From positions 1-64,000 of the IMG/VR virus record IMGVR_UViG_3300020399_000003: a stretch of DNA of 64,000 nucleotides; one strand, 5' to 3'. The notes beneath the pieces were generated by a model, which was not told the DNA's origin, did no database searches, and saw nothing but the letters and a program-made list of their open reading frames with translations. Source of the DNA: a virus. Lineage: Duplodnaviria; Caudoviricetes. A program made the translations under genes and the position numbers. This document shows, one piece after another, positions 21,062 through 64,000 of this stretch; within the stretch, counting starts at the first letter, position 1, and each line of letters opens with the position of its first letter.

Positions 21062-21218
21062 TCTACAAGAAGCACTACTAATAGTGAGTAAACTATTAAA
21101 TGATTACTTAAACGATCCTAATATTTCAGTAACCAAAGAACAAGAACAAGCTGTACTATTAATTAGAGATATAGCTGAGGGTAACGGTTGGAGTATTCAG
21201 AATGAATTCCGGGATTAG
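21054..21218 (+). CDS. small hypothetical protein (54 aa)
   Basis: Read by eye: MINLQEALLIVSK...QNEFRD; stop overlaps vRNAP stop. Confidence 0.5.
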   Translation: MINLQEALLIVSKLLNDYLNDPNISVTKEQEQAVLLIRDIAEGNGWSIQNEFRD

Positions 21219-30200: not shown

Positions 30201-33200
30201 TCTTCTTCGCTATCCTCAATAGAACCAAATGTTTTACCCCCTTTACCGTCATCTTTAGGAGCATATTTTTTAACAAACTCATCAAATTTAGCTTGGACTA
30301 ATTTTCGAGCCTCATCGCTCATATTGCGTTGAGTTAATTCTTGAAATTTTTCTAGTATCGTACGAGGAGTTTCATCAGGGCGAACTCGAGGAATTAACTG
30401 GTCTACTGGAATAGTTTCAGTTAGACCTTTTATGCGTACATGCACTTTTCCATCTTTTAATAATCCAACAATTTCTTCAATTACATAGCCTTGTGTATCT
30501 TGACTTTCTTGATTTTCATCATTTTTTAGATCAACTATATCACCAGGTCCGTAATCTGGATGATCTTCAATAGGTATGTAGTTAGGATTATTTTTTGGCT
30601 CAGCAAGCATTGTTATTTCTTCTAAAATAGCATCAACCCCACTATCATCAATATCTTTTCCAGCATTTTTATTAATTTGAACATTAACTATATTTTCTTG
30701 CTTACCTTCAAGTTGAGTTGTTACTTTTTCTAATTGAAGTTTTTGATATTCTTTTTCAGCTTTTAATAAACTTGGTTTAGCTGTTTCTTCTAATACCTTT
30801 CCAATTTTATTTATTTTTTCTTGTACTTTTTCCGTAGCTATAATTTTTTGAATATCAGAAGATTTTTCATCAGCTTCAATTGTTTTAAGATCTTCTTCAT
30901 ATCCTTCAACTTCTTTATTTAATGCTTCCCCATATTGTGTATCTTTTACTTTAATCGTATCAGTATCTGACCGTCCTGCAAAAGTTTCTCTTATACTATT
31001 TTCTTTAGTAACAACTTGAGGTAAACGACTTTGTAATGTATCTAATTCTGACCCTGAAGTATTTAAATTTTCTTCTAAATCTGTACTAATAGCATTTATC
31101 ACATCGTCTACAGTACCATTAGTTTGATTAGCTAAATCTTTATGTTTCTCAAATAATTTTTTAATTTTAGGATTTTTTGTTTCTACTTTTAATTCACCAC
31201 TTTTTGCATCAGTAGTAACATTAGGTAATTCAGCTATAGCTGATTCAACTTCTACAACTTCATTAGTTAGTTCTTCTAAACGCGCAAGATCTTTAGGATT
31301 CGTATCCTTTTCAAATTTTTCAATTCTTTTAATTTGTTCTTCTATTGCAGTTTTTTTCTTTTTTAATCCATCTTTTAATTGTTGTTCATTTGATGGACTA
31401 AGAATTTTTTTAGTAACAGCTGTTGTTACATTTGCTGCAACAAATGTAGGTCCTAATGTTAGAGATCCAAGTCCTTCCATTAATGCGCCCTTATATGTTG
31501 CTCTCCAATCAACTGTTTCTTTGGGTAGTTGTCCCTCAATAACTACTTCTGCACCACCTTGAACAGCTTCACCAGCTGCACCACTTACGAAATCAACAGC
31601 TTTACCTCCAATTTTACCTAAAATTTTAATGCTAGTAGGAGTATTCTCTCCTATCTTTTTAGCTATTTTTCGAATCCACTGCACATGTCCTCCAGGAGGA
31701 CCTTTACCAACTACTTTATCTAAATAACCTAAACTTATTTTTTGAGTAATTACTTTTAATGCCATCCAATTTTCAATAGAATTTTGAACTTCTGGCGTGT
31801 AATTTTCTTCCCCATGCTTTTCAATCCATGCTGCTTTAGCACGTTGAGATTCATCTCTAATAAAAGTAGTTAATGTGGCACTTCCTGTAAACAATCCTCC
31901 AGCAACTAAAGCTAAAGAATACGCAGCACTACCTAATCCTTCTTTAGCATAAGCTGCTTTATGATTTTTTAACATTTCCCAAACAGCAGCAAGTTCACCA
32001 TCTTTATCAGCAATTAAATCATAAATTGATTGACTCGCTTGAAATCCAGCATCATTTGTTGGGAAAAGAGCTCTCCATTTATCCGCGTATTCTGTAATCC
32101 TTTCTCTTTGTTCGTTGTTTTCATCAGCTTCTTTTTGTAATTTAGAAAGTACTCCAAATTTTGGATCGTTTTTAAATTGTTCTTGAGCAGTAGTTAAAGT
32201 TTTACTAGTAAGAATAGATCTATACATTTTAACATCTGCAGGTGTAAGATCAGTTTCTTTCTTATTAAGTAGTACTTGAGCCTGTTTTAATTTATTATAA
32301 TTATTAACTTTTCCTTGTAGACTTTGTTCTCCAACAATAGCACCTGCAACATATGCATCAAGACCACCAATACTTCCCATTAAATAGTTCTTAACATCAC
32401 CAATAGACCATTCTTTATAAGCACCATTAGCTTGATTTGCAGCATCTCGTGCAAAACGAGTAGCATAATAAGTTGCTTCTTCTTCAGTTAAATTAGTTAC
32501 GGGTTTACCATTAATAATTGCAACCCATGTACCATCTTCAAGTCCTAAAACATTAGGTCCTTTAGTTTTAACAACTGGAGAATTTATCTCCATATGTGGT
32601 GCTTCAGTTAATGCAAGAACACTAGCTTTTACATGTGGACTAACATCCATATTCATAATAGATAAACGTTGTTCTTCTTTAGGATCACTGCTACTTACTA
32701 AATCATAATAATTAACATTAGATGGGGGCGGTAATGTAGATGGATCTGATTTTGCTCCTACTCCTATAGCTATACTATCTCCTGCTTTTCCTAAACCTTC
32801 TAATGCTTCACCTGGAGCTTTAGATCCACCTTTAACTAATGCATCTTTTGCATCAACCCATTTTTCTTTATCAGATAGTATTTCTCCAGATTTACTTACT
32901 CCTTTTACAAAATTATTTTTTGCATCAACTAATCTATTGCCAAGTTCTTTAGCTATTTCAATATCAGCTAAAACATCTTTTGTTATTACTGTAGCGGTAC
33001 CTTTAACTTTAGCAACTCCTGTATCAATAAGTTCATCTGCTTTATTAAGTATGTCATTACCAAATGCTTCTAATTGATCAAATACTTTAGCAGCATCAGC
33101 AGTAGAAGGAAGATCAGGAAGTTGATCTGTAATTGATTTAACAGCTTTTTCGGCACCTTTTAGTGCTAAATCTGGAGCTTGTGAAACACCACTAATAAAA

Positions 33201-48702: not shown

Positions 48703-50124
48703 TTATTTCTCAAAGTTATATTGTGAGTCAATCATTTTATTCATCATTTGGTCACTACCTAATGTGTAAATAGAGCTTAAAGGATCAATTAATGTTTTTT
48801 CATAAGGAATTTCGCTGACATACATTGGCATATCTGGTATACCCGCTTGTTGGTAGTCCTTAAATCCAGGTGCTCCAAGAGCGCCCATCAATGCTAATTT
48901 AGTTCCATCCACATCTCCTCCAGCCATTGAAACTACTTCTAAAACTCTTGAAACTATAGCTTGTACAGCTTTTGCTTTAGACGCATTAGTTTGTTTTACA
49001 TCTTGTTTTGATTCTTGTTTAGCTGCCGGTTTCTGTGGCTTTTTAGACTCACTTTTTGGTGTGCTTTTACTTACTGGTGCTGCTGGTGTACTTTTAGCTA
49101 CTGGGGCTGCAGAAGCTACAGGAGCTGCCGGTGCTGAAGGTGCTGCTTGTATTTTAGCTACAGCAGCAACTGCACTAGAAACTTGAGGTGCAGCGACAGG
49201 TGGTGCACTTGGAGCAGACATCCCTGTATTAATAGTTATTGGCTGGATTGTTCCGGCTGTGCTAGGAACCGATATAGTTATAGCCCCCGGACTTACTGCT
49301 ACAGGGACATTGAGCATTTGTTGTCCAGCTGGGGTAGCAATAGTAATTTGCATATTTGTTCCCACACTAGCATTTACAACCTGACCTAAAGGAGATGGAG
49401 TTGTTGGAGACATGTCGTTGTTCTGCATGATATCTTGGCTACTAACAACAATATCATCAACTGCATTAGCTACTAAATCTAGAATAGTATTTTGAACTTG
49501 ATCATTAATAATATCGTATGTAGCAGTTAGATTAATCATATTCGTTTGCGGTCCACCATAACCACCACTTAAACTTGCTCCATCGAGGATTAAACCAAAT
49601 GTTGCTAAGGAATAGGTTAATGTATTCTGTGGGACAATTAATTGACTTGTTACTGTTTGGTAGTCTTGACCTGCAGGAGTTGTAAATGAAGCTAAATCTG
49701 AATAAGTAGTAGTTCCATCTGTAACTTCAATTTTCATAGTAAATGGATCTCCGCCTATATAATTTCTATCCCGTAATCCAACAGAAGCATCCATAGTGAA
49801 CCCCTGAAGCATTTCTTCTTCAGTTAGGAATGATTTAACATCATTAGTAATCTTCCATTCTGTATCAATCCCATAATTGTAGTTTGGATAAAGAGCACCA
49901 TGATGATCCCAATAAACGACATCATCATCATCACCACCATCTGAAGCAATATCACTTCTTGGATCAAAATTATAATTTGTACATCTTGTTGAACAGGAGG
50001 TTTCTGCACCAGCTGAATCTTCAGTAACGTCAGCAGTTGTTTTTGTATCTGCATTGGAGATTGCACAAAAACTTATTTGCGCTAAAAGAATAACTAAAAA
50101 TATAGCTAATTTAAAAATCGTCAT
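48703..50124 (-). CDS. secreted/exported protein with Ala/Pro/Lys-rich linker
   Basis: Signal-peptide-like N-terminus, beta-rich domain, low-complexity linker. Confidence 0.65.
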   Translation of the reverse strand: MTIFKLAIFLVILLAQISFCAISNADTKTTADVTEDSAGAETSCSTRCTNYNFDPRSDIASDGGDDDDVVYWDHHGALYPNYNYGIDTEWKITNDVKSFLTEEEMLQGFTMDASVGLRDRNYIGGDPFTMKIEVTDGTTTYSDLASFTTPAGQDYQTVTSQLIVPQNTLTYSLATFGLILDGASLSGGYGGPQTNMINLTATYDIINDQVQNTILDLVANAVDDIVVSSQDIMQNNDMSPTTPSPLGQVVNASVGTNMQITIATPAGQQMLNVPVAVSPGAITISVPSTAGTIQPITINTGMSAPSAPPVAAPQVSSAVAAVAKIQAAPSAPAAPVASAAPVAKSTPAAPVSKSTPKSESKKPQKPAAKQESKQDVKQTNASKAKAVQAIVSRVLEVVSMAGGDVDGTKLALMGALGAPGFKDYQQAGIPDMPMYVSEIPYEKTLIDPLSSIYTLGSDQMMNKMIDSQYNFEK

Positions 50125-50674
50125 CCCACTCTACCTCTCCACTAGAATATGTATTACCTGTATGGTTATTTAGATCAACAACTTTTTGATTTTCTTTTTT
50201 ATTTTTCCATTCATCATAATCAGGTCTTCTATGGGGTTGTTTATCCCATATCTGTTTCGCTTCTTCTCCAAGTTTGCCATCAACGGGACAGGGTGTTCCT
50301 GCCTGTTCCATAGCTTGAAAAACTCTAGTGTCTTGGCATAGCAAAGATACAGAAGCAACTTTCATTCCCATACCATATAGAGAACGTGCAAGCTTTAATC
50401 TTTCACAGTTCTTATCCACAACCGTATTACCAAAAGAAAGACCAAACCACGCAGATTGAGCTGCACCAGCCATTGCGGTAGTACAGACATCCTGGTTATT
50501 TAACATTATGTTTGGAGAAGCAGCAGTACTAGGTGTTCTATCTACTGTTGTTGTACCAGTAACAGTCCCAGAAGATGTAACAGTTGAGGATACTGTTGTA
50601 TTAGTATCTACAGCAAATGCAAGGGAGGGAATAAATAGAATAATAATAAGAGGTAAAATCTTCCATGATTTCAT
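50111..50674 (-). CDS. exported Cys-containing protein
   Basis: Signal peptide; DVC..., KNCERLKLARSL, SLLCQD..V..AM..AGTPCP. Confidence 0.7.
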   Translation of the reverse strand: MKSWKILPLIIILFIPSLAFAVDTNTTVSSTVTSSGTVTGTTTVDRTPSTAASPNIMLNNQDVCTTAMAGAAQSAWFGLSFGNTVVDKNCERLKLARSLYGMGMKVASVSLLCQDTRVFQAMEQAGTPCPVDGKLGEEAKQIWDKQPHRRPDYDEWKNKKENQKVVDLNNHTGNTYSSGEVEWDDDF

Positions 50675-52045: not shown

Positions 52046-52600
52046 TTATTCTCCCATAGAATGATCATGTTTTATACCTCTAATCTGGATAGTTAACCGA
52101 TTATCTACAGCTGATTCACTAATAGGAGTAATTAAATGTCTTTCACAGTTATCAAAAATAACTAATCTACCAAATTGAGGCTTAACTACATGTTCTTTAT
52201 TGTCATTATCAAGCCAAACTAAAAATCCACCCCAATCAATATTCCAAACGGTATTAAGATATAATGTCGCACTGAAACTATACTTTATATCATCATGCAT
52301 AATTAGATGACTTAATGGTTCCCATTTATAAAAAGTATAAGTTATTGTAAAGGTAGGTTTTATTTGAACAATAGGAGCTAAATATTGTTCTAAATCTGCG
52401 TGAAGTTGCTGGCACCAAATATCCCTATTCCAGATACCCTGTAATTCTATTATACTAGGTGCTGTTCCCCACTTAACTTGTCTCCAATCGTCATTAGGTG
52501 CATGCATATCATCCAATATATCGATTGCTGTTTGTGGTGTTAGCACATTTTCATACAGGAGTGTCATTTTTAACCTGTTGAATTTGTTGAACTTTGCCAT
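52046..52600 (-). CDS. 2OG-Fe(II) oxygenase, prolyl-4-hydroxylase-like
   Basis: MHDD (HxD), SATLYLN..W..DWGG, PQFGRLVIF, H.ITP, RLTIQ. Confidence 0.88.
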   Translation of the reverse strand: MAKFNKFNRLKMTLLYENVLTPQTAIDILDDMHAPNDDWRQVKWGTAPSIIELQGIWNRDIWCQQLHADLEQYLAPIVQIKPTFTITYTFYKWEPLSHLIMHDDIKYSFSATLYLNTVWNIDWGGFLVWLDNDNKEHVVKPQFGRLVIFDNCERHLITPISESAVDNRLTIQIRGIKHDHSMGE

Positions 52601-52940
52601 CCTTTAAAACATATTCATCACCTGCTGTAAGATAATGTACAAATACACCATCAAAACTAGGATGGTAATGGGGGTGAGTTCTCTCGCCATTAACCTGATA
52701 ATGACCAGATACCGTAGCTTCTATATTTAGAGATTTAGCATCCGTAATATTATAAGCATTTGTTAAGTAATACCGAATAACTTCATTCGCAATCTTTTCA
52801 TATTCTTTTACAAAATCAAATGTTGGGTCTAGAACAGCTTTATTTACAATTAGTTCCATCAATTTTATCTTTATATCTTCAGGGGTGTTTAACTGCATTT
52901 TGCCAATCTTTGTGGTCCAATTTTTAGTTATTTTCATCAT
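52551..52940 (-). CDS. N-terminal half of 2OG-Fe(II) oxygenase (split gene or fragment)
   Basis: RTHPHYHPSFDGVFVHYLTAG present; no DPRP/WHES C-terminal half. Confidence 0.7.
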   Translation of the reverse strand: MMKITKNWTTKIGKMQLNTPEDIKIKLMELIVNKAVLDPTFDFVKEYEKIANEVIRYYLTNAYNITDAKSLNIEATVSGHYQVNGERTHPHYHPSFDGVFVHYLTAGDEYVLKDGKVQQIQQVKNDTPV

Positions 52941-53772
52941 AGATTGTCGATAAAGGTTTTACTATCGTAGAATTTGTTTTTGTCAGTATTCTGTAATTAA
53001 TAACGATTGATACTCTTATTCCACTTCCTGTAAACGTATTAGACTCATGCCAAATACAGGCAGGATGCATCAGTAGAGTTCCAGTTACAGGACTCCATGC
53101 AAGCGCTTTATTACAATAAGGATAATTTTGTGAGGGTCTTGGATCTTGAAGTATTAAATTACCAGAACCATCAGTATTACTAGTTTTTAAATTATTATCT
53201 AAATCAACAGGATACCTATTATCATCTAGTACATATTCATTACCCGCTGTTAAATAGTAAATTAGCACACCATCAAATCCATGATGGTAGTGAGGGTAGG
53301 TTCTACCACCGTAAACTTGATGATTACCAAATGATCTAGCTTCTATATCAAGATCATCTATATTCGTAATACCGTACGCTTCAGTAATATAGTCTCTAAT
53401 TATTTTATTTGAGATTTTCTCAAATTCTCTAATTGCGTGTGCATTAGGATCATCGTTAGGGTAAATAAAAATGTTTGAACCATCATTTGCTATTACCTGT
53501 ATAAGTTGTTTTCTTAATTCTTCACCAATTTCTATTTTATCCTCGCCTAATGGTGTTGTCCAATGATCTGTAATTTCCATTGAAATTGGATGAATACCTT
53601 GTGCATACGGATCATTAACCTCCTTAGATTGATTTCTTTCAATCATAAAGGTTGGATCAGCCGTAGTAAACAAGACTTCATCACATTCAATTTCAACTGC
53701 TTTATGTAGATCAGAAGTAGCACCAGGGCAATTGATAGCCCCATTCGGAGGTATTACAAAGTAATCCTTCAC
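52924..53772 (-). CDS. 2OG-Fe(II) oxygenase (TIGR02466-like HxH type)
   Basis: RTYPHYHHGFDGV..YYL, LILQDPRP, HP..WHES, RVSIVIN. Confidence 0.85.
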   Translation of the reverse strand: MKDYFVIPPNGAINCPGATSDLHKAVEIECDEVLFTTADPTFMIERNQSKEVNDPYAQGIHPISMEITDHWTTPLGEDKIEIGEELRKQLIQVIANDGSNIFIYPNDDPNAHAIREFEKISNKIIRDYITEAYGITNIDDLDIEARSFGNHQVYGGRTYPHYHHGFDGVLIYYLTAGNEYVLDDNRYPVDLDNNLKTSNTDGSGNLILQDPRPSQNYPYCNKALAWSPVTGTLLMHPACIWHESNTFTGSGIRVSIVINYRILTKTNSTIVKPLSTIYDENN

Positions 53773-53981
53773 TGTCCTGGCTGGATTAACTCGGTTAGTA
53801 CTCGATAATTCACAACAATTGCAACCCGTATTCCATTTCCTAAAAATGGATTTGATTCATGCCAGACATAGGAAGGATGGCATATTGCCATTCCAGACTT
53901 CGGTGTAATAACATGAGTCTTTTCGTTAATAGGATAATTAACTACTGGTCTAGGGTCTTGAAGTATTAGTTCTCCTGTCAC
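53769..53981 (-). CDS. C-terminal half of 2OG-Fe(II) oxygenase
   Basis: GELILQDPRP...HPSYVWHESNP..G.GIRVAIVVNY only. Confidence 0.7.
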   Translation of the reverse strand: MTGELILQDPRPVVNYPINEKTHVITPKSGMAICHPSYVWHESNPFLGNGIRVAIVVNYRVLTELIQPGQ

Positions 53982-55318
53982 TTGTCCTCCTTAGCATATT
54001 TTAGGGTCTCAAACCCAAATACATCTTTGCGATATTCTGGTAATGTTTCATGTTCAATTCTATGAAGAACATGCCCGGTTATCTCAAATAGGGAAGCTGC
54101 AAGCCACACTGCGTTGTCACTATAGGAGTTGTCGCATGACAATTCCCACTCTTTACTACCTCCTGACAAGAATAAACAAGAACCTTGACACAAATGAAGT
54201 ACTGGGCAAGTTCTACATTCTTCCCTATCAGACCAATGCGTTCCTGATTTTATATCAACAGATTCCAAATCATCCATTGTCCCAATCTTATGTGAAACAC
54301 CGCCTGGGTTATTACCAGACACCGTTACGTTTTGGCAAGTAGTCACGTTTCCATTCAGATCAACTGCCATTGTATTTGGTGAATCCATTCCGCATTTTTG
54401 CATTAAAGAACTAGAAGGTTGTTGGGATTTTAAAGAACCAATAAAATTCTCAATCTTTTGATTCAAAATAACAAAATGTTTTATTTTCTTATCCATAATT
54501 TCCCTAAAAGCTTTTCTTCTATAGCCAATATGTTCTTCTTCCGATTGCCATGACATAGAAGCTCCGCCTTCATCATATGCATCAACAGTTCCACCTTCAC
54601 CAATTCCAATCATCCCAAAGTTATTTATCATCCACCTTTGAATTTCTGCCCTACTATCGTTATCTTTATGAATCATAGAATTAACAGAAAATTTATTTCT
54701 TGGAACTAATAGATTCCTTAATTTGAATAACCATTTCTTTTGTTCTGGATCATCCAGTGGATCTGGACCTCTTGTTTTTTGTCCTATAGCATCATGTGAA
54801 ATAGATACACCAAAATCATATTTCAGGATAAAATCAATTATTTCTTGATTTATAAGAGAACCATTTGTAATAACACTATAGGTTGCATCAGGATATTTAG
54901 CATGTAGTTGTTCTGTAACTAATTTCATTTTATTAAAATACAAGAATGGTTCACCACCCCACATTTCAAAGTGTAATTCTTCTCCTACAGTAACTGTGTC
55001 AAATTTCTTTATAAAACTTTCAATTTCATTAGCATCTACATCTTCTGGCGAATATGTATCATCTGTATTTCTAGGTACAAATCTTTGTGAGCAATATTCG
55101 CAGGAATAATTGCATTTTAAACCAAGTTGTATTTTAATTTTTGTAAGATCACGTTTCCCTGCATCCATCTTATGAAATGGAATCCAATCTTTAAATGTGT
55201 CCTGCGGTACTACAATATCACCAGATTCGTAACGTAATTCAGACGTTTCATTATCGTAATCCAATACCATCTCGTTTCCGCTTTCTGGTGATTCTAAATG
55301 AAATTTAAATTTTGCCAT
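53978..55318 (-). CDS. radical SAM enzyme with SPASM-like C-terminus
   Basis: CNYSCEYC, WGGEPFL, ITNGSL, ISHD, KCG..., CRTCPVLHLCQGSC...C. Confidence 0.93.
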   Translation of the reverse strand: MAKFKFHLESPESGNEMVLDYDNETSELRYESGDIVVPQDTFKDWIPFHKMDAGKRDLTKIKIQLGLKCNYSCEYCSQRFVPRNTDDTYSPEDVDANEIESFIKKFDTVTVGEELHFEMWGGEPFLYFNKMKLVTEQLHAKYPDATYSVITNGSLINQEIIDFILKYDFGVSISHDAIGQKTRGPDPLDDPEQKKWLFKLRNLLVPRNKFSVNSMIHKDNDSRAEIQRWMINNFGMIGIGEGGTVDAYDEGGASMSWQSEEEHIGYRRKAFREIMDKKIKHFVILNQKIENFIGSLKSQQPSSSLMQKCGMDSPNTMAVDLNGNVTTCQNVTVSGNNPGGVSHKIGTMDDLESVDIKSGTHWSDREECRTCPVLHLCQGSCLFLSGGSKEWELSCDNSYSDNAVWLAASLFEITGHVLHRIEHETLPEYRKDVFGFETLKYAKEDK

Positions 55319-55319
55319 T

Positions 55320-56099
55320 TTATATCCTAATTAGTGGATCAATAGATTTACTTGTACTAATATTAAAATTAACAGTAATAGCTACACGAATACCAGAACC
55401 CATAAATGGATTTGACTCATGCCATAAATAGCCTGGATGTAATAACGTCAATCCTACTTCTGGTTTAAGATGCCAAGCCTTTCTATTATACGGATATGAT
55501 ATAGCAGGTCTAGGATCTAAAAGAATTAAATTACCCGGTTCTTCAAATTCTTTTGGATGTGTACTAGGAGCTGTAGGAGCAAATGATACAATTTTTACAG
55601 CTTTAGGTGCATCAATTAAAAAATCTTCCCAATTATTATTTTCCATACAATCTACATCAATACTAATCTCATCACCCAACGTAAGATATGTAATTGCTAC
55701 GCCATCATAGCCATGATGGTAGTGCGGATAAGTACGTTGTCCCCATGATTGAACATTACCAAAACATTTTGCTTCTATATCCATATCTGCCACATTTTCA
55801 ACATTCCACGCATTAGCAACATAATAACGAATTAATTCAGCTATATTTTTCTTATATAGATCAACAAATTCATTATCGGTAGAATTAGCAAATAAATTAT
55901 AATAATGTTTATTGCTATATCCATTCTCCATTGGATGAACATGTTGATATGTTTGTTTAACAATACATTTAATTAAACCAATTCGTACTTCGTCTGGCAA
56001 ATCAAAACTAATTAATCCAAGGCTACTTGACCAATCATCCCGCAGTTCAAACGAATTATTTAAAGGATGATCTATATTATTTAAATAATGGTCATTCAT
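55320..56099 (-). CDS. 2OG-Fe(II) oxygenase (HxH type)
   Basis: RTYPHYHHGYDGV, DPRP, HPGYLWHES. Confidence 0.85.
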   Translation of the reverse strand: MNDHYLNNIDHPLNNSFELRDDWSSSLGLISFDLPDEVRIGLIKCIVKQTYQHVHPMENGYSNKHYYNLFANSTDNEFVDLYKKNIAELIRYYVANAWNVENVADMDIEAKCFGNVQSWGQRTYPHYHHGYDGVAITYLTLGDEISIDVDCMENNNWEDFLIDAPKAVKIVSFAPTAPSTHPKEFEEPGNLILLDPRPAISYPYNRKAWHLKPEVGLTLLHPGYLWHESNPFMGSGIRVAITVNFNISTSKSIDPLIRI

Positions 56100-56887
56100 T
56101 CTAATGGTTTCAATAGTTCATTGTAACCATGTGAAACAATTCTAAAATTAACTACAATACATACTCTTATTCCTTCACCAAGCCACGGATTTGTTTCATG
56201 CCATACATAATTGGGATGAACAATTGTTAACCCTACTCTTGGGCTAATAGTATGTACTTTTTCCCAATACGGATAGCTTATTGCAGGTCTTGGATCTTGA
56301 AAAATTACTGTGTGACCTCCATGCCTAGCAGATTTTTCAAAATCTTTATTCATTTGTTCTTCTAAAGGTTTATCTTCATCACCCATTTTAAGATAATGAA
56401 CTAAAACACCATTAATATCTTGATGATAATGAGGATAAGTTCTAGCTCCCGGCTGTTGAACATTACCGAAACATCTTCCTTCAAGCTGCATATCATCTGC
56501 TTGTTGAACTCCCCAACCCTTACGAATGTAATAACGGATCATCTGGCAAGCTATTTCCTTAAATCCTAAAATTGAATCTTTTGCAAAAGGAAATTCATTA
56601 ACAGAATCAAAAAGATTATAGTGAGTAGTAGCATAAAATCCTTTTGAATGAGCCATTCCATAAAATTCAGGATTACTTTCTTTAAGTTCAGATAATGCTG
56701 TTTCTTTGTGTATTAAAACCTTTACTAGATCTTTCCGCATTTTTTCTGGCAGACTTGTATCAGACTCCATAAAAGGGGTAGTAAATTTCTGATCAATCTT
56801 TGCAAAATTATCTAAAGGATGACTAGTCGTATCTAGCGGTTCATCTTTTAAGTTTTTGTAAAACTCAACATGTTCTGCTGTTTTCAT
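56096..56887 (-). CDS. 2OG-Fe(II) oxygenase (HxH type)
   Basis: RTYPHYHQDINGV, DPRP, HPNYVWHET. Confidence 0.85.
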   Translation of the reverse strand: MKTAEHVEFYKNLKDEPLDTTSHPLDNFAKIDQKFTTPFMESDTSLPEKMRKDLVKVLIHKETALSELKESNPEFYGMAHSKGFYATTHYNLFDSVNEFPFAKDSILGFKEIACQMIRYYIRKGWGVQQADDMQLEGRCFGNVQQPGARTYPHYHQDINGVLVHYLKMGDEDKPLEEQMNKDFEKSARHGGHTVIFQDPRPAISYPYWEKVHTISPRVGLTIVHPNYVWHETNPWLGEGIRVCIVVNFRIVSHGYNELLKPLE

Positions 56888-57642
56888 GATATCCTCATGG
56901 ATTCTTCATCCGTGTATACATTCAAATTAGTTTGTACACTCCATCTTTGTTCAGTACCCCGATATGGATATACAGCATGATCTAACCATTTCGGAAAAAT
57001 GTAATAGTCCCCTACAGTTGGTATAATAAAACTAGTAGTTTCTGGACTATAATCATCTAGCGTACCTATATATTGGCTTTGCCATCTAAATTGTAACAGT
57101 CCGTCTGTTAAAAATCTTCCATTATTGTCAGGATTTTCTCGTGATTTAAAAGCATCTTGTCTAATATGTTCTGGTACTTTAATGTAACAGATTGTTGCAA
57201 GGCCAGTTCTTGCCTTAGTATAATGAGCATGTATAGGATTGTAATCATTCTGATTCATTTTTACAGACCAACAACTATCAATAGTTATTGTCCTATGCTC
57301 GTTCTCAACATTTACATTCGGTCTACCCATAAAATTTTGGTATGCGATACCTCCTTCTATAATTTCACTACAAAAGTTTCTCATTAATGGGTGTTCAATA
57401 TCTAAGTTTGATTGATCTCCAGATATATTAGCCGCTAATTCAGAATTTGCTGAATTGTCATTAACATTTGCAATATATTTATGTACATCCGTAATAATAT
57501 CTTTAGACATTCTACCTCTTAATACACTGATAGCATGAAATGATGTCATTTCTTTTGTTTCAGTAATTGGTGTAGTTACTGTAGTAGCTTGATGCCCCTT
57601 ATTATCTATTTTCATATTAGATAAGTTGGAAGAATATCCCAA
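56884..57642 (-). CDS. 2OG-Fe(II) oxygenase (divergent HxH type)
   Basis: DYNPIHAH, YIKVP, PTVGDYYIFPKWLDHAVYP, RWSV. Confidence 0.82.
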   Translation of the reverse strand: MGYSSNLSNMKIDNKGHQATTVTTPITETKEMTSFHAISVLRGRMSKDIITDVHKYIANVNDNSANSELAANISGDQSNLDIEHPLMRNFCSEIIEGGIAYQNFMGRPNVNVENEHRTITIDSCWSVKMNQNDYNPIHAHYTKARTGLATICYIKVPEHIRQDAFKSRENPDNNGRFLTDGLLQFRWQSQYIGTLDDYSPETTSFIIPTVGDYYIFPKWLDHAVYPYRGTEQRWSVQTNLNVYTDEESMRIS

Positions 57643-58421
57643 TTCCTATTTTCGATATTAAAGTTAATAACAATAGCAACGCGGATACCAGCTTTTGTAT
57701 GTGTTTGGGTTTCGTGCCAGACATAACCAGGATGAATGAGAGTCATTCCTACCTCTGGTTTAAATGTTTTTGCTTTGTTATTGTATGGCATTTTAATGGC
57801 AGGCCTTGGATCTAGCATAATCAAGTCTCCACTAAAATCAGAATTTATAGCCTCAGGATCTTTATCATCTATAGCTTTTCGACCACCCGCGGAGCGGGCT
57901 GTGATTTGTACTAAATGGTCATTGGTTGACATAGTCCAATCATCAGCATCACTAAATAACGGGTAATTAAATTCCTCTCCAACAGTTAAATAGTGAACCA
58001 AAACACCATCCCATGCATGATGGAAATGAGGGGCAGTTCTTCTACCAAATGGTCTTTGTACATTACCAAAGCACCGAGCTTTAATTGCTGCATCCTCATC
58101 TAGCCCCCATGCTTTATGAATGTAAGTCCTAATGATTTTTGAAGAGATTTTTTCAAATTCTGCTAAAGCATCTATTTCATTAGCGTCTAATACTGTTTTC
58201 TGATCGTCATAATCAAATAGATTATAAATTTTATCGTCAAACTTTTTTAAGGCTTCAGATGTATTATTTACTTTATTATAGGTGTGTTCTGTAAATACAA
58301 TACCCTGTTTAGTTAAGATAACTATTAAAATTTGTCTTAACTCTTCGGGTAAATAAATATTGATACTACCAATGGGAGTTGTCCATTCGTGTTCAACATT
58401 TAGCTTGTCATGTAGGTCCAC
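57612..58421 (-). CDS. 2OG-Fe(II) oxygenase (HxH type)
   Basis: RTAPHFHHAWDGV, DPRP, HPGYVWHET. Confidence 0.85.
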   Translation of the reverse strand: MDLHDKLNVEHEWTTPIGSINIYLPEELRQILIVILTKQGIVFTEHTYNKVNNTSEALKKFDDKIYNLFDYDDQKTVLDANEIDALAEFEKISSKIIRTYIHKAWGLDEDAAIKARCFGNVQRPFGRRTAPHFHHAWDGVLVHYLTVGEEFNYPLFSDADDWTMSTNDHLVQITARSAGGRKAIDDKDPEAINSDFSGDLIMLDPRPAIKMPYNNKAKTFKPEVGMTLIHPGYVWHETQTHTKAGIRVAIVINFNIENRNWDILPTYLI

Positions 58422-59416
58422 TAGGCTACCGTATAATTAACATCCTGGACACCAGTCAGATTTCTAAAACCAATCTTCACCTTAAATGTATCACCAGATT
58501 CTAATCCTAGGGCTGTTACTTTAAAAGTACCAAGACCATCAGTTATAGGTACTCGAGTTTTAGGTAAATACCCAGCAGTTGATTCTAAATAAGCTTCAGA
58601 AGTTCTCGCAATTAGTGCACCATCTTTATCTACCATTTTAAAAGCAACAGTATCGGTACCATCTGCATCAATACTAGTACCGCCAGAAGTAACCGTAAAC
58701 GTAGGAAAGGCTTCATTCATTTCACCTAAATAGTTGTAACCATCGCCAGAAGTCTTAAACAATGCTTTTTCATCTGTTCCAATTAGCCAATCATTCATTA
58801 TATTTGTACTAAAACCACAGCCACGATTATATTTCATCGTAATTGAACAATCTGTGAAATTGTCTGTGTTAAATGATTTATAGATAAAAAGAGCAGCAGG
58901 AGCATTTTGCTGACGAACTGATCGCAAAGGATGGGCCTTACTATAGTGTGTATTTGTTAGTGAATTGTAACTAGCACTCGCTGAGAAGTCTGGTTTTATG
59001 CCTATCACCCAACAAGCAACATCTGATTTTTCACCAGATGCAATTGATGGATCAGTTGGATCAACCCAGGAGAACCCTGTATTTCTAAACCATGTATCTT
59101 TTAATTTTTCTGTATAGGTGTCACGAATATTAGCAGGTATCTGCGGTAAAAATGTTTCACCAGTAACCATAGTTCCATGAAGTATTCCCGTTGGTAACTT
59201 GTCGTGGAAAACTCCACTCATAGCTGCTGGAAATTCTCCCAAAGCAGGAGCTGCTGGCATATGTAAACTTTGTTCTGGAAAAGGTCTATTAGGCATTGCA
59301 CCGTTAAACTCATCTTCGTCAATGGGAGACCAGACTTTCAAACATACAAAATCATCATTAACTAATAGTTCTAAGTGGACTCCCATACTTAAACTATCAT
59401 AAAGTTTTTTAAACAT
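58421..59416 (-). CDS. hypothetical protein with C-terminal Ig-like beta domain
   Basis: Alternating beta pattern TDTVAFKMVDKDG...GTFKVTALGL..GDTFKVKIG. Confidence 0.65.
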   Translation of the reverse strand: MFKKLYDSLSMGVHLELLVNDDFVCLKVWSPIDEDEFNGAMPNRPFPEQSLHMPAAPALGEFPAAMSGVFHDKLPTGILHGTMVTGETFLPQIPANIRDTYTEKLKDTWFRNTGFSWVDPTDPSIASGEKSDVACWVIGIKPDFSASASYNSLTNTHYSKAHPLRSVRQQNAPAALFIYKSFNTDNFTDCSITMKYNRGCGFSTNIMNDWLIGTDEKALFKTSGDGYNYLGEMNEAFPTFTVTSGGTSIDADGTDTVAFKMVDKDGALIARTSEAYLESTAGYLPKTRVPITDGLGTFKVTALGLESGDTFKVKIGFRNLTGVQDVNYTVA

Positions 59417-59428
59417 TTTGTTCCTTTC

Positions 59429-59959
59429 TTAGCAATTACAAGCACAGGCACAAGCACATGCCCCACCAAAACAAGCCGGACCGTTAGTTGTGCAATTAGG
59501 ATGATTGTTGCAGTTATTTGGAGAATTATTACAATTAGTCTTACCATTACCATTTGTTGCGCAATTGGGATGATTATTACAATTACTAGAGGAGTTGTTA
59601 CAATTAGTAAATCCTCCTCCATTAACTGAACAGTTAGGCATACCATTCCCATTAGTTGTACAATTTGCATGCCCAGAACCATTGGTTGTACAGTTAGCAT
59701 GATTAGTACAGTTAGTTTGCCAGGTATTATCTCCTCTTAAATACTTTCCAGCACTAGGAGAGGCTCCCATTCGTGCAGGAACTAATGTACCACTACTAAT
59801 GTTATCCGCATTAGTGGTATCTGTTGTAGCTGAAGCAACCAGAGCAGGTTTGTTTAATAAGGTATTCCAATCTGATGCAGGGGCATTGTCTAATGCTCCT
59901 CCAATAACATCACCGCCACTATCTAAAAGTCGTGCTATTTCATCTGCTCTAGTAGTCAT
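59429..59959 (-). CDS. Cys/Asn-rich tail-associated protein, paralog 4
   Basis: MTTRADEIARLLD leader, YLRGDNTW, NC repeats, ends CACACACNC. Confidence 0.8.
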   Translation of the reverse strand: MTTRADEIARLLDSGGDVIGGALDNAPASDWNTLLNKPALVASATTDTTNADNISSGTLVPARMGASPSAGKYLRGDNTWQTNCTNHANCTTNGSGHANCTTNGNGMPNCSVNGGGFTNCNNSSSNCNNHPNCATNGNGKTNCNNSPNNCNNHPNCTTNGPACFGGACACACACNC

Positions 59960-59971
59960 TAATTAACCTCT

Positions 59972-60481
59972 TTAACAATTGCAGGCACAAGCAGCGCAAG
60001 CACCATTATGTGTACAATTGGGATAGCTAGTACAGTTGCCGCTAGAATTATTACAGTTAGTTTTACCATTGCCATTCGTAGCGCAATTACTATGATTACT
60101 ACAATTACTAGAAGTATTATTACAGTTAGTTTTGCCATTACCATTAGTTGCACAATTAGTATGACCACTACCATTAACGGCACAGTTTGCCATACCGTTA
60201 CCATTCGTTGTACAATTTGCATGATTGGTACAATTAGTCTGCCAAGTTCCATCGCCTCGTAAGTATTTTCCAGCACTAGCAGAACCGCCTACCCGTGCAA
60301 CATTTAATGTACCTGTGCTGATATTATCTGCATTAGTGGTATCAGTAGTTGCACTAGCCACAAGTGCTGGCTTATTTAAAAGGGTATTCCAGTCACTAGC
60401 AGGCATATTATCTAAAGCACCTACAATAACATCTCCACCGCTATCTAAAAGCCTAGCTATCTCTGATGCTCTAGTTGTCAT
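59972..60481 (-). CDS. Cys/Asn-rich tail-associated protein, paralog 3
   Basis: Same leader; ends CAACACNC. Confidence 0.8.
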   Translation of the reverse strand: MTTRASEIARLLDSGGDVIVGALDNMPASDWNTLLNKPALVASATTDTTNADNISTGTLNVARVGGSASAGKYLRGDGTWQTNCTNHANCTTNGNGMANCAVNGSGHTNCATNGNGKTNCNNTSSNCSNHSNCATNGNGKTNCNNSSGNCTSYPNCTHNGACAACACNC

Positions 60482-60493
60482 TAATTAATCTCC

Positions 60494-61003
60494 TCAACAA
60501 TTACAAGCACAAGCTGCCGGAGCACCATTTGTTGTACAATTAGGGTGATTCGTGCAGTTACCGCTAGAGTTATTACAGTTGGTATAAGTATTGCCATTAG
60601 TGGCACAATTAGCATGATTGGTGCAGTTACTAGAAGAGTTATTGCAATTAGTTTTACCATTGCCGTTTGTTGTACAATTAGCATAACCATTTCCGTTAGT
60701 CGCACAATTAGCGTGACCACCGCCATTTGTGGCGCAATTCCCGGTATTAGTACAATTGGTTTGCCATGTTCCATCTCCCCTTAAATATTTCCCTGAAGTT
60801 GGAGACCCACCTAATCGAGCAGCATCTAACGTACCTGAGGTTATATTATCTGCATTAGTAGTATCTGTCGTAGCAGACGCAACTAATGCAGGTTTATTTA
60901 GCAAAGTAGTCCAATCTGATGGAGGAGCATTATCTAATGCACTACTCTCCACATCGCCACCACTATCTAGAAGATTTGCTATTTCTGTTGATTTAGTTGT
61001 CAT
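60494..61003 (-). CDS. Cys/Asn-rich tail-associated protein, paralog 2
   Basis: Same leader; ends ACACNC. Confidence 0.8.
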   Translation of the reverse strand: MTTKSTEIANLLDSGGDVESSALDNAPPSDWTTLLNKPALVASATTDTTNADNITSGTLDAARLGGSPTSGKYLRGDGTWQTNCTNTGNCATNGGGHANCATNGNGYANCTTNGNGKTNCNNSSSNCTNHANCATNGNTYTNCNNSSGNCTNHPNCTTNGAPAACACNC

Positions 61004-61015
61004 TAATTTAGTTCC

Positions 61016-61606
61016 TTAACAATTACAAGCGCAAACACCTGGAGTCAAAACAACCGCTGTTCCAACAACACTTAATGTGCCGCCATAAGTATTATTTGCA
61101 GATCCACTTGCGGATGTAAGCGTCCCCGCACAATTAGTACAGTTAGTGTGACTGCTAGTTCCAGAACAATTAGCACAATTAGCCATACCATTTCCATTTG
61201 TTGCACAATTCCCAAAACTATCTGTGCCTGAACAATTAGTACAATTACCATGATTCGTACAATTAGTAGTCCACGCCCCGTCTCCTCGAAGATAATTTCC
61301 TGAACCACCAGTGCCACTTCCCATTCTAGCAACATTTAATGTTCCGGTACTAATGTTGTCAGCCGAAGTAGTATCTGTAGTAGCAGAAGCCACTAAACCA
61401 GCAACTTGAGCATTCGGAAGATCTACAATTCGTGCGTTAGGCAACGTTCCTGTATTAATATTACTAGCATCACGAGTATCTGTATCTGCATGAGCAGGTT
61501 TATTTAATAATGTCGTCCAATCAGAGGCAGGAACATTGTCTAAGCCAGCTGAGATAACATCCCCGTCTGCTTCTAGTAAGTTTGCGAGTTCTCTAGCTTT
61601 GCTCAT
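61016..61606 (-). CDS. Cys-rich tail-associated protein, paralog 1
   Basis: MSKARELANLL leader; NCxNC repeats; ends CACNC. Confidence 0.8.
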   Translation of the reverse strand: MSKARELANLLEADGDVISAGLDNVPASDWTTLLNKPAHADTDTRDASNINTGTLPNARIVDLPNAQVAGLVASATTDTTSADNISTGTLNVARMGSGTGGSGNYLRGDGAWTTNCTNHGNCTNCSGTDSFGNCATNGNGMANCANCSGTSSHTNCTNCAGTLTSASGSANNTYGGTLSVVGTAVVLTPGVCACNC

Positions 61607-61618
61607 TGTTTTATCCTT

Positions 61619-61975
61619 TTAGAAATTTATAAATTCCATTGTATCTAAAATAGTAGCCCCTGTTGCTAGTTCTATCGTAGTACCATTAGTAGCTTCAAAA
61701 TCGTTAGCTGCACCATTTAATAATTTAACACCATTCATAAATACCTGTACTCGTCCTACAACATATACATGAGGAAAAGTTGTTTGACCTGCTGTAGGAA
61801 CAACAATGGTTTCAGAATAGTCATCAGTTGCTGTTAATGTATGACCTCCTGCTGTTGAACCATCATGTACAACTAAAGTATCTTTATCAGTATCTACAGT
61901 AACTTCACGAAGAGCTCCTGTAAATGTAGCATGCTGAGCAGTCGTTCCGCCTCTTAACTGTAGTTTTTTAGCCAT
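61619..61975 (-). CDS. tail protein with mtd-like N-terminus (LQLRGGT...EVTVDTDK..VVHDG..AGG)
   Basis: N-terminal motif common in tail/tropism proteins plus a GQTTF..Y.VGRVQV..NGVKL domain. Confidence 0.7.
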   Translation of the reverse strand: MAKKLQLRGGTTAQHATFTGALREVTVDTDKDTLVVHDGSTAGGHTLTATDDYSETIVVPTAGQTTFPHVYVVGRVQVFMNGVKLLNGAANDFEATNGTTIELATGATILDTMEFINF

Positions 61976-61984
61976 GATGTCCCT

Positions 61985-62266
61985 TTATAAATTTATAAAT
62001 TCTAATCGGTCTGTTGTATCAACCCCAGTTGCTAAAACTACAGTTGTTCCATTGGTAGCTTCAAAATCATTGGATGCACCTACTACTAATTTAACTCCAT
62101 TTAAATAAACTTGTACTCGCCCTACTGTGTATACATGATTAAATGTTACTTGTGCAGCCGTACCGGGAGTAACTTCAGTTTCAGAAATTGTAACATTTTT
62201 AGAAGTTAGAGGATCTACTAAAAGACCAGAACTTCTGCCTGTATTGTTATCAACTATTCCACTCAT
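61985..62266 (-). CDS. small tail protein, paralogous to C-half of 61619-61975
   Basis: HVYTVGRVQVYLNGVKL..GA.NDFEATNGTT..LATG shared. Confidence 0.7.
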   Translation of the reverse strand: MSGIVDNNTGRSSGLLVDPLTSKNVTISETEVTPGTAAQVTFNHVYTVGRVQVYLNGVKLVVGASNDFEATNGTTVVLATGVDTTDRLEFINL

Positions 62267-62276
62267 AGTTTATTCC

Positions 62277-62606
62277 TTATAATGTCTGATCAAGATATGA
62301 AACACATACATCAATGTCTGATGCACTTGCAGTAATAATTGATAAATGATCTGATGCTTCCATTACAAATTTACTAGTATGCTCAAACGTTTGTTTAGCT
62401 CCTATTGCTTGATCAAAATAAATATATGTATCTGCTCCAGAGCCTCCGTCATCAATCAATAATTTGAATGTTTCTGCCGCATCACCTGTCTCACAAATGG
62501 TTACACTTAAAACCGTACAAGTATGCCCACTTGCAACAGTAAGTAATGCTTGAACGGAAGAAGCATCACCCCTAAATGTTGCTAGTTTTAAAACTTCACT
62601 TGCCAT
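62277..62606 (-). CDS. small beta-rich virion protein
   Basis: ORF track; beta-sandwich-like pattern. Confidence 0.6.
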   Translation of the reverse strand: MASEVLKLATFRGDASSVQALLTVASGHTCTVLSVTICETGDAAETFKLLIDDGGSGADTYIYFDQAIGAKQTFEHTSKFVMEASDHLSIITASASDIDVCVSYLDQTL

Positions 62607-62615
62607 AACTTTCTC

Positions 62616-64000
62616 CTAAAATCCAAGGACTAGAGCTTTGCCCGTACTTGTTATTGTTGGGTTCATAATTGTTGTTGATGAGGTTATGTTGTATCCTAAA
62701 ATATCTAAATCACCAGCAAGTTGAGGAGTAGCATCAGCTGATACCTCTATAGAAACAGTTCCAAAGGATAATTGACCAGCACCGTCAGTCTTCATATATT
62801 GATCTAGTAAACCATCCGCTTGCGGGTGTTTTAACCCATCAATAATAACATCACCTGAACCATTAGGAGTAATCGCTATATCACCATTAGACGCACTGAT
62901 TATCGAATTGCTATTTACATCTAAATCTCCACCTAATTCAGGACTTGCATCTTCTACTATATTTCCAAGACCAGGAGCAATACCAGTCCAAGCACTACCC
63001 GTATAATATTTAAGAAGGTTGTTGGTACTGTCGTACCAAAGATCTCCTGCTGAAGGAGAACCTGGGGAAGAAGCATTTATAGAATATTCATCACTGTATC
63101 TATTAATAGAGGATTCATTAAGTGCAGCAGTTGTAATATTTCCTGCTATGCCTGCACAAGTCGTAACATTAGCACTAATTGCTGCTAAAGAATTCATGTC
63201 AGTTACGTTCTGAGCCGTACCCAAGACGTTCATATCATTTACTACATCTGCGGTGCCCAAAATATTCATATCGTTTACAAAATCAGCCGAGGCTATAACA
63301 TTTAAATCACTAACGAAATCAGCTGTTGCTACGATATTTAAGTCACTGACAAAATCAGCGGTTCCAACAATTGCTAGGTCTGCTATTGTTGCCGCATTCC
63401 CCAAGAGTCCAATTTCAGTTGATACACCGGCTACACTTGTAACATCACTAGATATTCCCGCTACGGTAGTCGTATTTGCTGAAATGCCTGCAACTGTTGT
63501 AACATTTGCAGCAACTGCTGCTACGCTTGTTACATTAGCAGCAATCCCGGATACTATTCCAATTTCAGTAGTGTCTCCAGCAACGACTCCAATTTCTGTG
63601 GTATCCCCAGCTACAGTTGTGACGTTAGCAGCGATTCCAGCAACGGTAGTAATATTTGCTGAATTAGAATTAACGGCATTAATATTTGTTGAATTAGAGT
63701 TTACGCCTGATACAGCAGAAGAAATAGCGTTAACTCCTGACACGGCAGTAGAAATTCCTGCTACTGATGTAACATTGCTAGAAATTCCTGCAACTGTTGT
63801 GACATTACCGGATATTCCTGCCACTGTTGTAATATCAGCACTCGCTCCTGCCAATGCACTAATATTATTAGTAGGAGTAATTTGTCCTGCTACTGTATCA
63901 ATATCAGCAATATTATCTGCACAAGATGTTATATCTCCATTACCAGTAGAACTATCTAATGCATCAGCAATGCTTCCTAGATCCTCGTTAAAAACAACAT
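62616..64000 (-). CDS. tail fibre protein (5'-partial)
   Basis: Frame open to window edge (checked codon by codon 63855-64000); NVTTVAGI repeats, PSAGDLWYD..LKYY, EDASPELGGDLDVN. Confidence 0.85.
   Translation of the reverse strand, partial: VVFNEDLGSIADALDSSTGNGDITSCADNIADIDTVAGQITPTNNISALAGASADITTVAGISGNVTTVAGISSNVTSVAGISTAVSGVNAISSAVSGVNSNSTNINAVNSNSANITTVAGIAANVTTVAGDTTEIGVVAGDTTEIGIVSGIAANVTSVAAVAANVTTVAGISANTTTVAGISSDVTSVAGVSTEIGLLGNAATIADLAIVGTADFVSDLNIVATADFVSDLNVIASADFVNDMNILGTADVVNDMNVLGTAQNVTDMNSLAAISANVTTCAGIAGNITTAALNESSINRYSDEYSINASSPGSPSAGDLWYDSTNNLLKYYTGSAWTGIAPGLGNIVEDASPELGGDLDVNSNSIISASNGDIAITPNGSGDVIIDGLKHPQADGLLDQYMKTDGAGQLSFGTVSIEVSADATPQLAGDLDILGYNITSSTTIMNPTITSTGKALVLGF

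Follow-up and report, generated by a model that had tools for sequence, protein, structure and literature searches.

Radical SAM enzymes encoded beside cysteine-tailed fibre proteins: a marine N4-like phage carries an expanded copy of a widespread cassette that may mature fibre tips

Background

The question raised by positions 1 to 64,000 of IMG/VR virus record IMGVR_UViG_3300020399_000003 (hereafter the window, the whole 64,000-nucleotide stretch that was analysed) is what a radical S-adenosylmethionine (SAM) enzyme and a series of Fe(II) oxygenases are doing among the tail genes of a phage. The original prediction, made from the letters of the sequence, had placed at 53978-61606 a tailoring pathway in the style of RiPPs (peptides made by the ribosome and modified after translation), with four Cys-rich virion proteins as its substrates. 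The genes it had listed (the Cys-rich paralogs, an Ig-like protein, oxygenases and a radical SAM/SPASM enzyme) were all found, on one strand and with intergenic gaps of at most 12 nt or overlaps; its limits were too narrow on the left, where the cluster continues to 52046. As delimited here, the minus-strand cluster at 52046-61606 encodes four fibre paralogs, the Ig-like protein, five complete and one split PF13759-type oxygenase, one PF13640 oxygenase and the radical SAM enzyme (Table 1).

The reading preferred here, at a probability of roughly 0.55 and on the strength of sequence comparison, is that the window holds an enlarged version of a modular cassette, widespread among phages, in which fibre tips would be matured by the radical SAM enzyme. 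The number of other phages and prophages in which fibre end and enzyme are paired in this way is well above one hundred. The literature yielded no description of the cassette, nor any of enzymatic post-translational cross-linking of phage receptor-binding fibres. Phage radical SAM/SPASM maturases are at present left unannotated or are read as metabolic or 'antibiotic' genes, as in a 2025 cyanophage paper in which one is taken for an 'antibiotic synthesis' gene (PMC12801897).

Coupling of the enzyme to Cys-tailed fibre proteins

The first relatives of the radical SAM enzyme were located by tblastn, at 41-43% identity, in Ralstonia phage RSP15 (Ackermannviridae) and Achromobacter phage JWF (a siphovirus). 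The locus set was assembled by profile-guided scans and comprised the best 80 IMG/VR loci (at least 565 of 596 candidate stretches encode a radical SAM relative) and 80 loci from GTDB genomes, the latter mostly prophage regions of Burkholderiales (Limnohabitans, Polaromonas, Polynucleobacter) and Alphaproteobacteria. Open reading frames (ORFs) were labelled by iterative searches with the window's own proteins. Coupling was counted in the 128 loci with at least 3 kb of upstream sequence, which were drawn from IMG/VR contigs, prophages, RSP15 and JWF and carry radical SAM relatives of 35-77% identity.

In 119 of these 128 phylogenetically related loci, an ORF upstream on the same strand encodes a CxC-rich C-terminal tail of the form (Asn/Asp/Ala-Cys)n, and in four further loci such a Cys ladder stood just before a self-cleaving Hint domain. 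As a control, 5075 further ORFs from these loci were screened for such a tail; 45 showed it, mostly spurious frames in GC-rich DNA. In the reverse test, a DNA pattern encoding NCNCNCNC followed by a stop codon recovered 44 IMG/VR stretches; 25 had at least 4.5 kb downstream, and a same-strand radical SAM gene was found there in 23, several of the shorter stretches still showing the gene for the Ig-like partner described below. The coupling of the enzyme with Cys-tailed fibre proteins is two-way and near-obligate, and the loci span three tail morphotypes (podo-, myo- and siphoviruses) and several host classes. Co-occurrence of the radical SAM clade with Cys-rich genes, on which the original prediction had staked itself, was found in both directions.

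No Cys-tailed ORF was found upstream of the most distant radical SAM relatives (loci L150, L159 and L167), whose matches cover query residues 56-421 only. These three loci look like a different system at the clade's edge. Conserved ORFs of 750-830 aa and ~320-410 aa, of no known family, lie upstream in them instead.

In the two cultured phages the radical SAM gene lies beside tail-fibre genes and the tail-bearing proteins are annotated as fibres, in agreement with the link to tail structures that had been proposed. In RSP15 a 'side tail fiber' ending in NCQCGN is followed by a homolog of the 331-aa Ig-like partner (E 3e-14), by an ORF that aligns with the window's PF13759-type oxygenases and by the radical SAM gene. 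In the JWF fibre, NCNCDCNCNCS immediately precedes a Hint domain whose first residue is 308, and the radical SAM gene lies two genes on; once the Hint domain had cleaved itself off, the ladder would therefore form the mature C-terminus. Because the coupling is so strong, the enzyme very probably works on or with the Cys-tailed fibre proteins.

The commonest gene order was tail protein, Ig-like partner, oxygenase, radical SAM enzyme (37 loci, plus variants with extra oxygenases or tail proteins), followed by tail protein, partner, radical SAM enzyme (23 loci). The partner was present in 107 of the 128 loci and is on that account judged a core member of the cassette and not a bystander. A PF13759-like oxygenase was present in 89 of 128, and compact three-gene cassettes of tail protein, partner and radical SAM enzyme occur without any; the oxygenases are therefore optional. 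The window cassette is an expanded version, with four tail proteins, one partner, four oxygenases, the radical SAM enzyme and then more oxygenases. About 20 loci lack the partner, and in about 17 of them, JWF included, an unrelated protein of 230-290 aa is encoded immediately upstream of the radical SAM gene instead; this protein may be an alternative accessory. Examples of it lie at L002:8225-8947, L091:6303-7001, L105:3650-4372 and L128:4577-5452, with a C-terminus like ...SFK..LRQAQADYF.

The fibre paralogs and their tails

The Cys residues of the window's four paralogs are confined to the C-terminal 82-94 residues (first Cys at residue 84 or 116), and all four proteins terminate in CACNC. 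Paralogs 2-4 are 55-59% identical to paralog 1, and the N-terminal ~110 aa are nearly identical across the four. Most Cys are preceded by Asn, giving 9-11 NC dipeptides per protein, a number reached by 0-5 of 10000 composition-preserving shuffles, and in paralogs 2-4 the spacing of the Cys is fixed at 6,10,10,10,7,6,10,7,6. Hydrophobic residues number 11 of 82 in the core of paralog 1 and 2-4 in the 87-94 aa of the cores of paralogs 2-4. With so few, the latter cores cannot, judged by composition, fold around a hydrophobic centre and would need cross-links or metals.

The N-terminal motif of the paralogs, ...ASATTDTT.A.NI..GT...YLRGDGTW, is present in two copies in paralog 1 and in up to three in close relatives; long fibre proteins elsewhere also have it, immediately ahead of their Cys tail (...YLRGDGTW, E 0.001). 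The N-terminal ~110 aa accordingly look like a fibre attachment or shaft region shared with longer fibres; the paralogs themselves are encoded directly after an 811-aa repeat-rich fibre and small tail proteins of Mtd_N type. The paralogs and the other tail proteins matched no family in Pfam, NCBIfam or PHROGs, and tblastn of one paralog against GenBank phages gave no match, the low-complexity filter probably masking it.

Tail composition was compared across 123 unique tail proteins. The residue between Cys was Asn in 57%, Asp in 13%, Ala in 10% and Cys in 8%; the residue before the Cys run was Asn in 97 of the 123, and the last residue was Cys in the same number. The final 25 aa held a median of six Cys, against 1.2% Cys elsewhere. 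Asn or Asp was found at +1 to +3 of 511 of 750 tail Cys, which is suggestive only as regards a PapB-type CxnD/N motif. No difference in tail composition was found between loci with and without oxygenases. The proteins that bear the tails are 140-750 aa long and contain fibre repeats; when their N-terminal parts were clustered by single linkage, 95 of 107 fell together, and the marine clade with the window's type alone stood apart. The original prediction had described a conserved leader followed by an NC core. That picture holds in part: the supposed leader reads as the shaft region, and the feature that is constant across the family is the alternating (X-Cys)n tail at the extreme C-terminus.

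The smallest ladder carriers are tandem tail proteins of 72-92 aa in alphaproteobacterial loci (L152:5571-6062, L154:6209-6990 and L165:5939-6199, from Roseibium, Rhodoplanes and Tabrizicola), which end in NCNCDCRC or similar and adjoin partner, oxygenase and radical SAM genes. Elsewhere, His-rich runs such as HHFDPHHHHNNCTNCNCNC and GHNHDCACNCNC stand directly before the Cys ladder (L025:4773-5978; L046; L082; L064:1428-3686) and recall the metal-binding His-x-His motifs of fibre needles.

The radical SAM enzyme

The enzyme was assigned by matches above cut-off to both PF04055 and TIGR04085 (Table 1). Its radical SAM motif, CNYSCEYC, occupies residues 69-76, and the three cluster Cys (C69, C73 and C76) are 100% conserved in 146 unique homologs. 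The SPASM domain was judged by the seven-Cys motif CX9-15GX4C-gap-CX2CX5CX3C-gap-C, which can be read in the enzyme as Cx13Gx4C...Cx2Cx5Cx3C...C; the seven Cys (C309, C328, C368, C371, C377, C381 and C395) are at least 99% conserved. The SPASM-like Cys cluster that had been noticed is accordingly a full seven-Cys SPASM domain. Exactly 3 + 7 Cys are conserved among the homologs, with no eighth Cys like Cys255 of anSME. The catalytic core is preceded by a conserved extension of ~58 aa that is predicted to be strand-rich, holds a Tyr conserved in at least 95% (Y21) and is not a recognisable RiPP recognition element (RRE).

The best full-length NCBIfam alignments were to peptide and protein maturases. 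The highest-scoring specific models were anSME (71.6 bits, aligned residues 65-381), PapB (62.3 bits, residues 59-382), QhpD (53.4 bits) and DynA (53.2 bits), and by sequence the nearest solved structures were 8VPO, a RiPP cyclopropyl synthase (PMC10878394), and then anSME. On its scores against their models, the enzyme is not an orthologue of anSME, PapB, QhpD or CrpC.

In the thioether-forming enzymes CteB, PapB and Tte1186, auxiliary cluster 1 is held by three Cys and auxiliary cluster 2 by four, and the substrate Cys or Sec binds the open iron of auxiliary cluster 1 (PMC10177961, PMC6231123); CrpC has the same seven-Cys scheme (PMC13692751). The 3 + 7 conserved Cys of the phage enzyme correspond to those of such thioether-forming SPASM enzymes. 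The auxiliary clusters of anSME, SuiB and PqqE are fully ligated, in anSME with an extra Cys (PMC10177961, PMC6231123, PMC13692751).

The Ig-like partner and the oxygenases

An AlphaFold 2 model of the 331-aa partner, built with 36 homologs, had a predicted local distance difference test (pLDDT) score of 90. It contains, as had been expected, an Ig-like domain, at residues 238-331, with Z 10-11 to GH2 C-terminal, intimin and invasin domains at a root-mean-square deviation of ~2 Å over 90 residues; this domain holds an invariant Lys as well as invariant Gly residues. The N-terminal 236 aa, folded alone (pLDDT 85), gave no convincing solved fold: the best match was SPP1 gp22 (Z 4.5), matches to the cyanophage A-1(L) fibre, Mtd and the phage 1358 receptor-binding protein were weak (Z 2.4-2.9), and Foldseek returned none at E <=0.001. 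The BFVD relatives of the partner were all uncharacterised phage proteins, and no family was found for it in Pfam, NCBIfam or PHROGs.

Oxygenases were assigned to PF13759 (2OG-FeII_Oxy_5) at the Pfam cut-off of 27 bits, and copies just under it are called PF13759-type. Two His are invariant in 142 cassette-linked homologs and the third ligand position is His (79), Glu (47) or Asp (13), a pattern by which these proteins are taken to be non-heme Fe(II) enzymes; H-x-H...H is present in the five aligned window copies that cover the ligand motif. A candidate 2-oxoglutarate-binding Arg was found in 77 of the 142, the window copies included. The many oxygenases that had been noted are there, and across the 128 loci they are optional. 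The two halves of the split copy flank an intact paralog in swapped order, and both align well to intact copies. For the ORF at 52046-52600 the libraries conflict, the best PHROG (phrog_274) being labelled 'DNA endonuclease V' and the Pfam match being PF13640.

Proposed mechanism and alternatives

According to the preferred reading, the window would supply four alternative small fibre proteins that share an N-terminal attachment or shaft region, each ending in a nearly hydrophobic-free Asn/Cys-rich core capped by the alternating (X-Cys)n tail. We infer that the tail is the substrate. The radical SAM enzyme would act on the Cys-rich region inside the infected cell: auxiliary cluster I would bind a substrate Cys thiolate at its open iron, a nearby residue would lose a hydrogen atom to the 5'-deoxyadenosyl radical and a thioether cross-link, of sactionine or ranthionine type, would form. 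The product, presumably carried on the virion, would be a covalently braced knob at the receptor-binding end, independent of disulfide chemistry; a tip cross-linked in the reducing cytoplasm would be rigid whatever the redox state, which is what a core without hydrophobic residues needs. The Ig-like partner could be a tip-associated structural protein, or else an assembly chaperone or presenter of the substrate, and the optional PF13759 Fe(II) oxygenases may tailor the tip, perhaps by hydroxylating Asn/Asp or other residues. As precedent, and not as evidence here, AspH hydroxylates Asn/Asp in Cys-rich EGF domains (PMC6817910) and QhpG is an oxygenase that acts after a radical SAM cross-linker (PMC7876137).

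That the enzyme modifies the Cys-rich end itself is considered probable. For the chemistry, thioether formation is the best single guess, at about even odds, because seven-Cys SPASM enzymes do this with Cys-rich substrates, because Asn and Asp are known acceptors and because whole-protein substrates are documented, namely QhpC for QhpD (PMC7876137) and CrpA, in which ranthionines are formed by CrpC (PMC13692751). A bolder and tentative form of the proposal would have the enzyme staple the Cys ladder across three fibre chains or to the Ig-like partner, with the Fe(II) oxygenases decorating the result, as a swappable module serving all three tail morphotypes. If this is true, RiPP-type radical chemistry would be building a virion organelle, a determinant not known before would act on host range and particle stability, and this one N4-like phage would have, through its four paralogs, four tips that are cross-linked differently.

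Several points weigh against maturation of the tips by radical chemistry. The enzyme falls far under every specific maturase cut-off (anSME, TIGR03942, 71.6/349 bits; PapB, NF047865, 62.3/340; QhpD, TIGR03906, 53.4/453; CrpC-type, TIGR04463, 38.1/525), so the reaction cannot be read from orthology, and SPASM sequence networks predict function poorly (PMC6231123). Strict RiPP hallmarks were not found: neither Pfam, which is not sensitive for RREs, nor NCBIfam gave an RRE/PqqD domain in the enzyme, and the cassette holds no protease. The window's own tail, C-A-C-N-C, includes an Ala beside its Asn, and acceptance by Asn alone is thereby excluded. The alternating Cys resemble metal-thiolate (metallothionein-like) motifs, and some tails have His-rich runs before them. 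Finally, the 128 loci are phylogenetically related, so the counts overstate how many independent events lie behind them.

The alternative that survives best, while still unlikely, has the alternating tail and the NC core bind metal or iron-sulfur at the tip of a trimeric fibre, by analogy with the His-x-His iron sites of the T4 long-fibre needle, with the radical SAM enzyme loading or remodelling a cluster or modifying a single residue. CxC ladders are classic metal-thiolate motifs, the His-rich runs mentioned above precede some tails and the cores of paralogs 2-4 have no hydrophobic centre, all of which such a tip would accommodate. A passive metal site needs no enzyme, however, and the radical SAM enzyme is almost obligately coupled to the tail; donation of a cluster is not known to us for any SPASM enzyme. 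The seven-Cys scheme of the enzyme, moreover, agrees with binding of a substrate Cys at auxiliary cluster 1 (PMC10177961).

As a rival to the preferred reading, an intermolecular staple, in which the enzyme joins the fibre Cys tail to the Ig-like partner or three fibre chains together, is improbable. It would suit the position of the partner gene, which almost always comes right after the tail protein gene (107/128 loci), the invariant Lys and Gly of the Ig-like domain and the placing of the tails, which either end the chain or come to do so once the Hint domain is cleaved off. It is hard to reconcile with the loci that lack the Ig-like protein, most of which encode the unrelated protein instead, and the SPASM thioether enzymes characterized so far form intrachain links.

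Some other chemistry on the tail Cys (anSME-like oxidation to formylglycine, Cys epimerisation or C-terminal oxidative decarboxylation) is held to be no likelier than the staple. anSME is the best NCBIfam model and the second-best PDB sequence match, and Cys is the last residue in 79% of tails. The anSME score lies far below its 349-bit cut-off, however, and the anSME reading was rejected: the complete genome holds no sulfatase gene, the C/S-x-P/A-x-R motif is absent from the paralogs and present in only 1 of 121 tails, and the fourth Cys ligand of anSME auxiliary cluster I (Cys255) is missing from the enzyme (PMC6231123).

It is very improbable that the cassette is non-structural, making released RiPP-like toxins or signalling peptides or consisting of auxiliary metabolic or 'antibiotic synthesis' genes unrelated to fibres: three alphaproteobacterial loci (L152, L154, L165) do encode only the short tail peptides, and phage radical SAM maturases have been read as antibiotic genes (PMC12801897), but the cassette contains no protease, transporter or immunity gene, its tails are borne by 140-750-aa proteins with fibre repeats, some annotated as fibres, and it lies inside the tail modules of podo-, myo- and siphoviruses.

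Should the tips be modified as the preferred reading has it, host-range work with recombinant or engineered versions of such fibres could not succeed unless the enzyme were supplied, structure predictions of the tips would be wrong and the proteins would form a large new class of SPASM substrates (whole structural proteins, hundreds of loci). The system is testable in two cultured phages, RSP15 and JWF.

Gene layout and genome context

The window is part of a 73,993-bp virus record rated complete and has a GC content of ~35%. It encodes an N4-type RNA polymerase, a giant 4506-aa protein resembling virion RNA polymerase (N4_RNAP_helical, 25.3 bits, just under the Pfam 27-bit cut-off), a portal and a major head protein; the phage is therefore an N4-like podovirus. 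A LysM domain was found at residues 294-336 of the 4506-aa protein (21215-34735).

The cassette belongs to a tightly packed late block on the minus strand that extends from the 811-aa fibre (62616 to past the window end) down to 52046. In order of transcription the block encodes the 811-aa fibre, three small tail proteins, the four paralogs, the 331-aa protein, four PF13759-type oxygenases, the radical SAM enzyme and more oxygenases. A promoter and terminator scan gave matches at chance level and was uninformative on operon structure. What sets this window apart is its N4-like host genome, its four tandem paralogs with long NC cores of period 6/7/10 and the large number of oxygenases to which it has expanded. 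No match was obtained when 12 kb of it was compared with GenBank phages by megablast. Just downstream of the cassette, at 48703-50674, two proteins with signal-peptide-like N-termini and no family match are encoded, one of 473 aa with a long Ala/Pro/Ser-rich low-complexity stretch.

Table 1. Features of the late block and its surroundings in the window, from the upstream tail module to the last oxygenase gene in order of transcription
Feature	Length (aa)	Position	Strand	Remarks
Upstream tail module		61619..64000	-	118-aa Mtd_N protein; 93-aa and 109-aa small tail proteins; C-terminal part of 811-aa repeat-rich fibre
Fibre paralog 1	196	61016..61606	-	Duplicated shaft motif; Asn/Cys-rich core; 11 Cys; end ...LTPGVCACNC
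Fibre paralog 2	169	60494..61003	-	13 Cys; NC repeats of period 6/7/10; end ACACNC
Fibre paralog 3	169	59972..60481	-	14 Cys; end ACACNC
Fibre paralog 4	176	59429..59959	-	16 Cys; end ACACACACNC
Conserved partner	331	58421..59416	-	N-terminal domain 1-236; predicted Ig-like domain 238-331; homolog of RSP15 ORF047
PF13759-type Fe(II) oxygenase 1	269	57612..58421	-	25.6 bits (just under 27); H-x-H...H motif
PF13759 oxygenase 2	252	56884..57642	-	50.8 bits; most divergent
PF13759 oxygenase 3	263	56096..56887	-	36.4 bits
PF13759 oxygenase 4	259	55320..56099	-	29.1 bits
Radical SAM/SPASM enzyme	446	53978..55318	-	PF04055 39.8 bits (cut-off 29.5); TIGR04085 36.9 bits (cut-off 27)
Split PF13759 oxygenase, C-terminal half	70	53769..53981	-	25.6-26.0 bits (just under 27)
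PF13759-type oxygenase 5	282	52924..53772	-	26.0 bits (just under 27)
Split PF13759-type oxygenase, N-terminal half	129	52551..52940	-	Alignment only; no Pfam match to PF13759
2-oxoglutarate-Fe(II) oxygenase of other family (PF13640/PF13661)	184	52046..52600	-	PF13640 39.9 bits

Comparison with known systems

The nearest parallels are the short-peptide systems PapB/PapA (freyrasin), CteB and Tte1186, in which, as here, a seven-Cys SPASM radical SAM enzyme (three + four Cys) is paired with a substrate of repeated Cys with Asp/Asn close by (PMC10177961). The proteins described here differ in being fibre proteins of 140-750 aa with the target at the extreme C-terminus and not short secreted peptides, in the lack of any RRE, protease or exporter that could be found and in the presence of a conserved Ig-like partner. 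A Cys-Asn beta-thioether is made in the NxxcB/NxxcA system.

In quinohemoprotein amine dehydrogenase, the radical SAM/SPASM enzyme QhpD puts Cys-to-Asp/Glu thioethers into a structural subunit, QhpC, and the oxygenase QhpG then tailors it within the complex (PMC7876137). The oxygenases of the phage cassette are by contrast non-heme Fe(II) enzymes by motif and not flavoproteins, and the product would be a fibre and not an enzyme cofactor. CrpC/CrpA of Methanococcus voltae offers a Cys-rich whole-protein substrate of a seven-Cys SPASM radical SAM enzyme, with ranthionines demonstrated; among the CrpA substrates the N-terminal region is identical, and a paralog may serve as chaperone (PMC13692751). 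That system is archaeal and cellular, with an RRE, without fibre context and with motifs of CPLVL type. anSME (PDB 4K36) has the same radical SAM and SPASM architecture without an N-terminal RRE. On the structural side, the needle of the T4 long tail fibre (gp37) contains His-x-His iron sites. Like the tails described here, gp37 carries an alternating-residue ladder near the distal fibre tip, but the ladder of gp37 is built of His and not of Cys and is formed without a dedicated enzyme.

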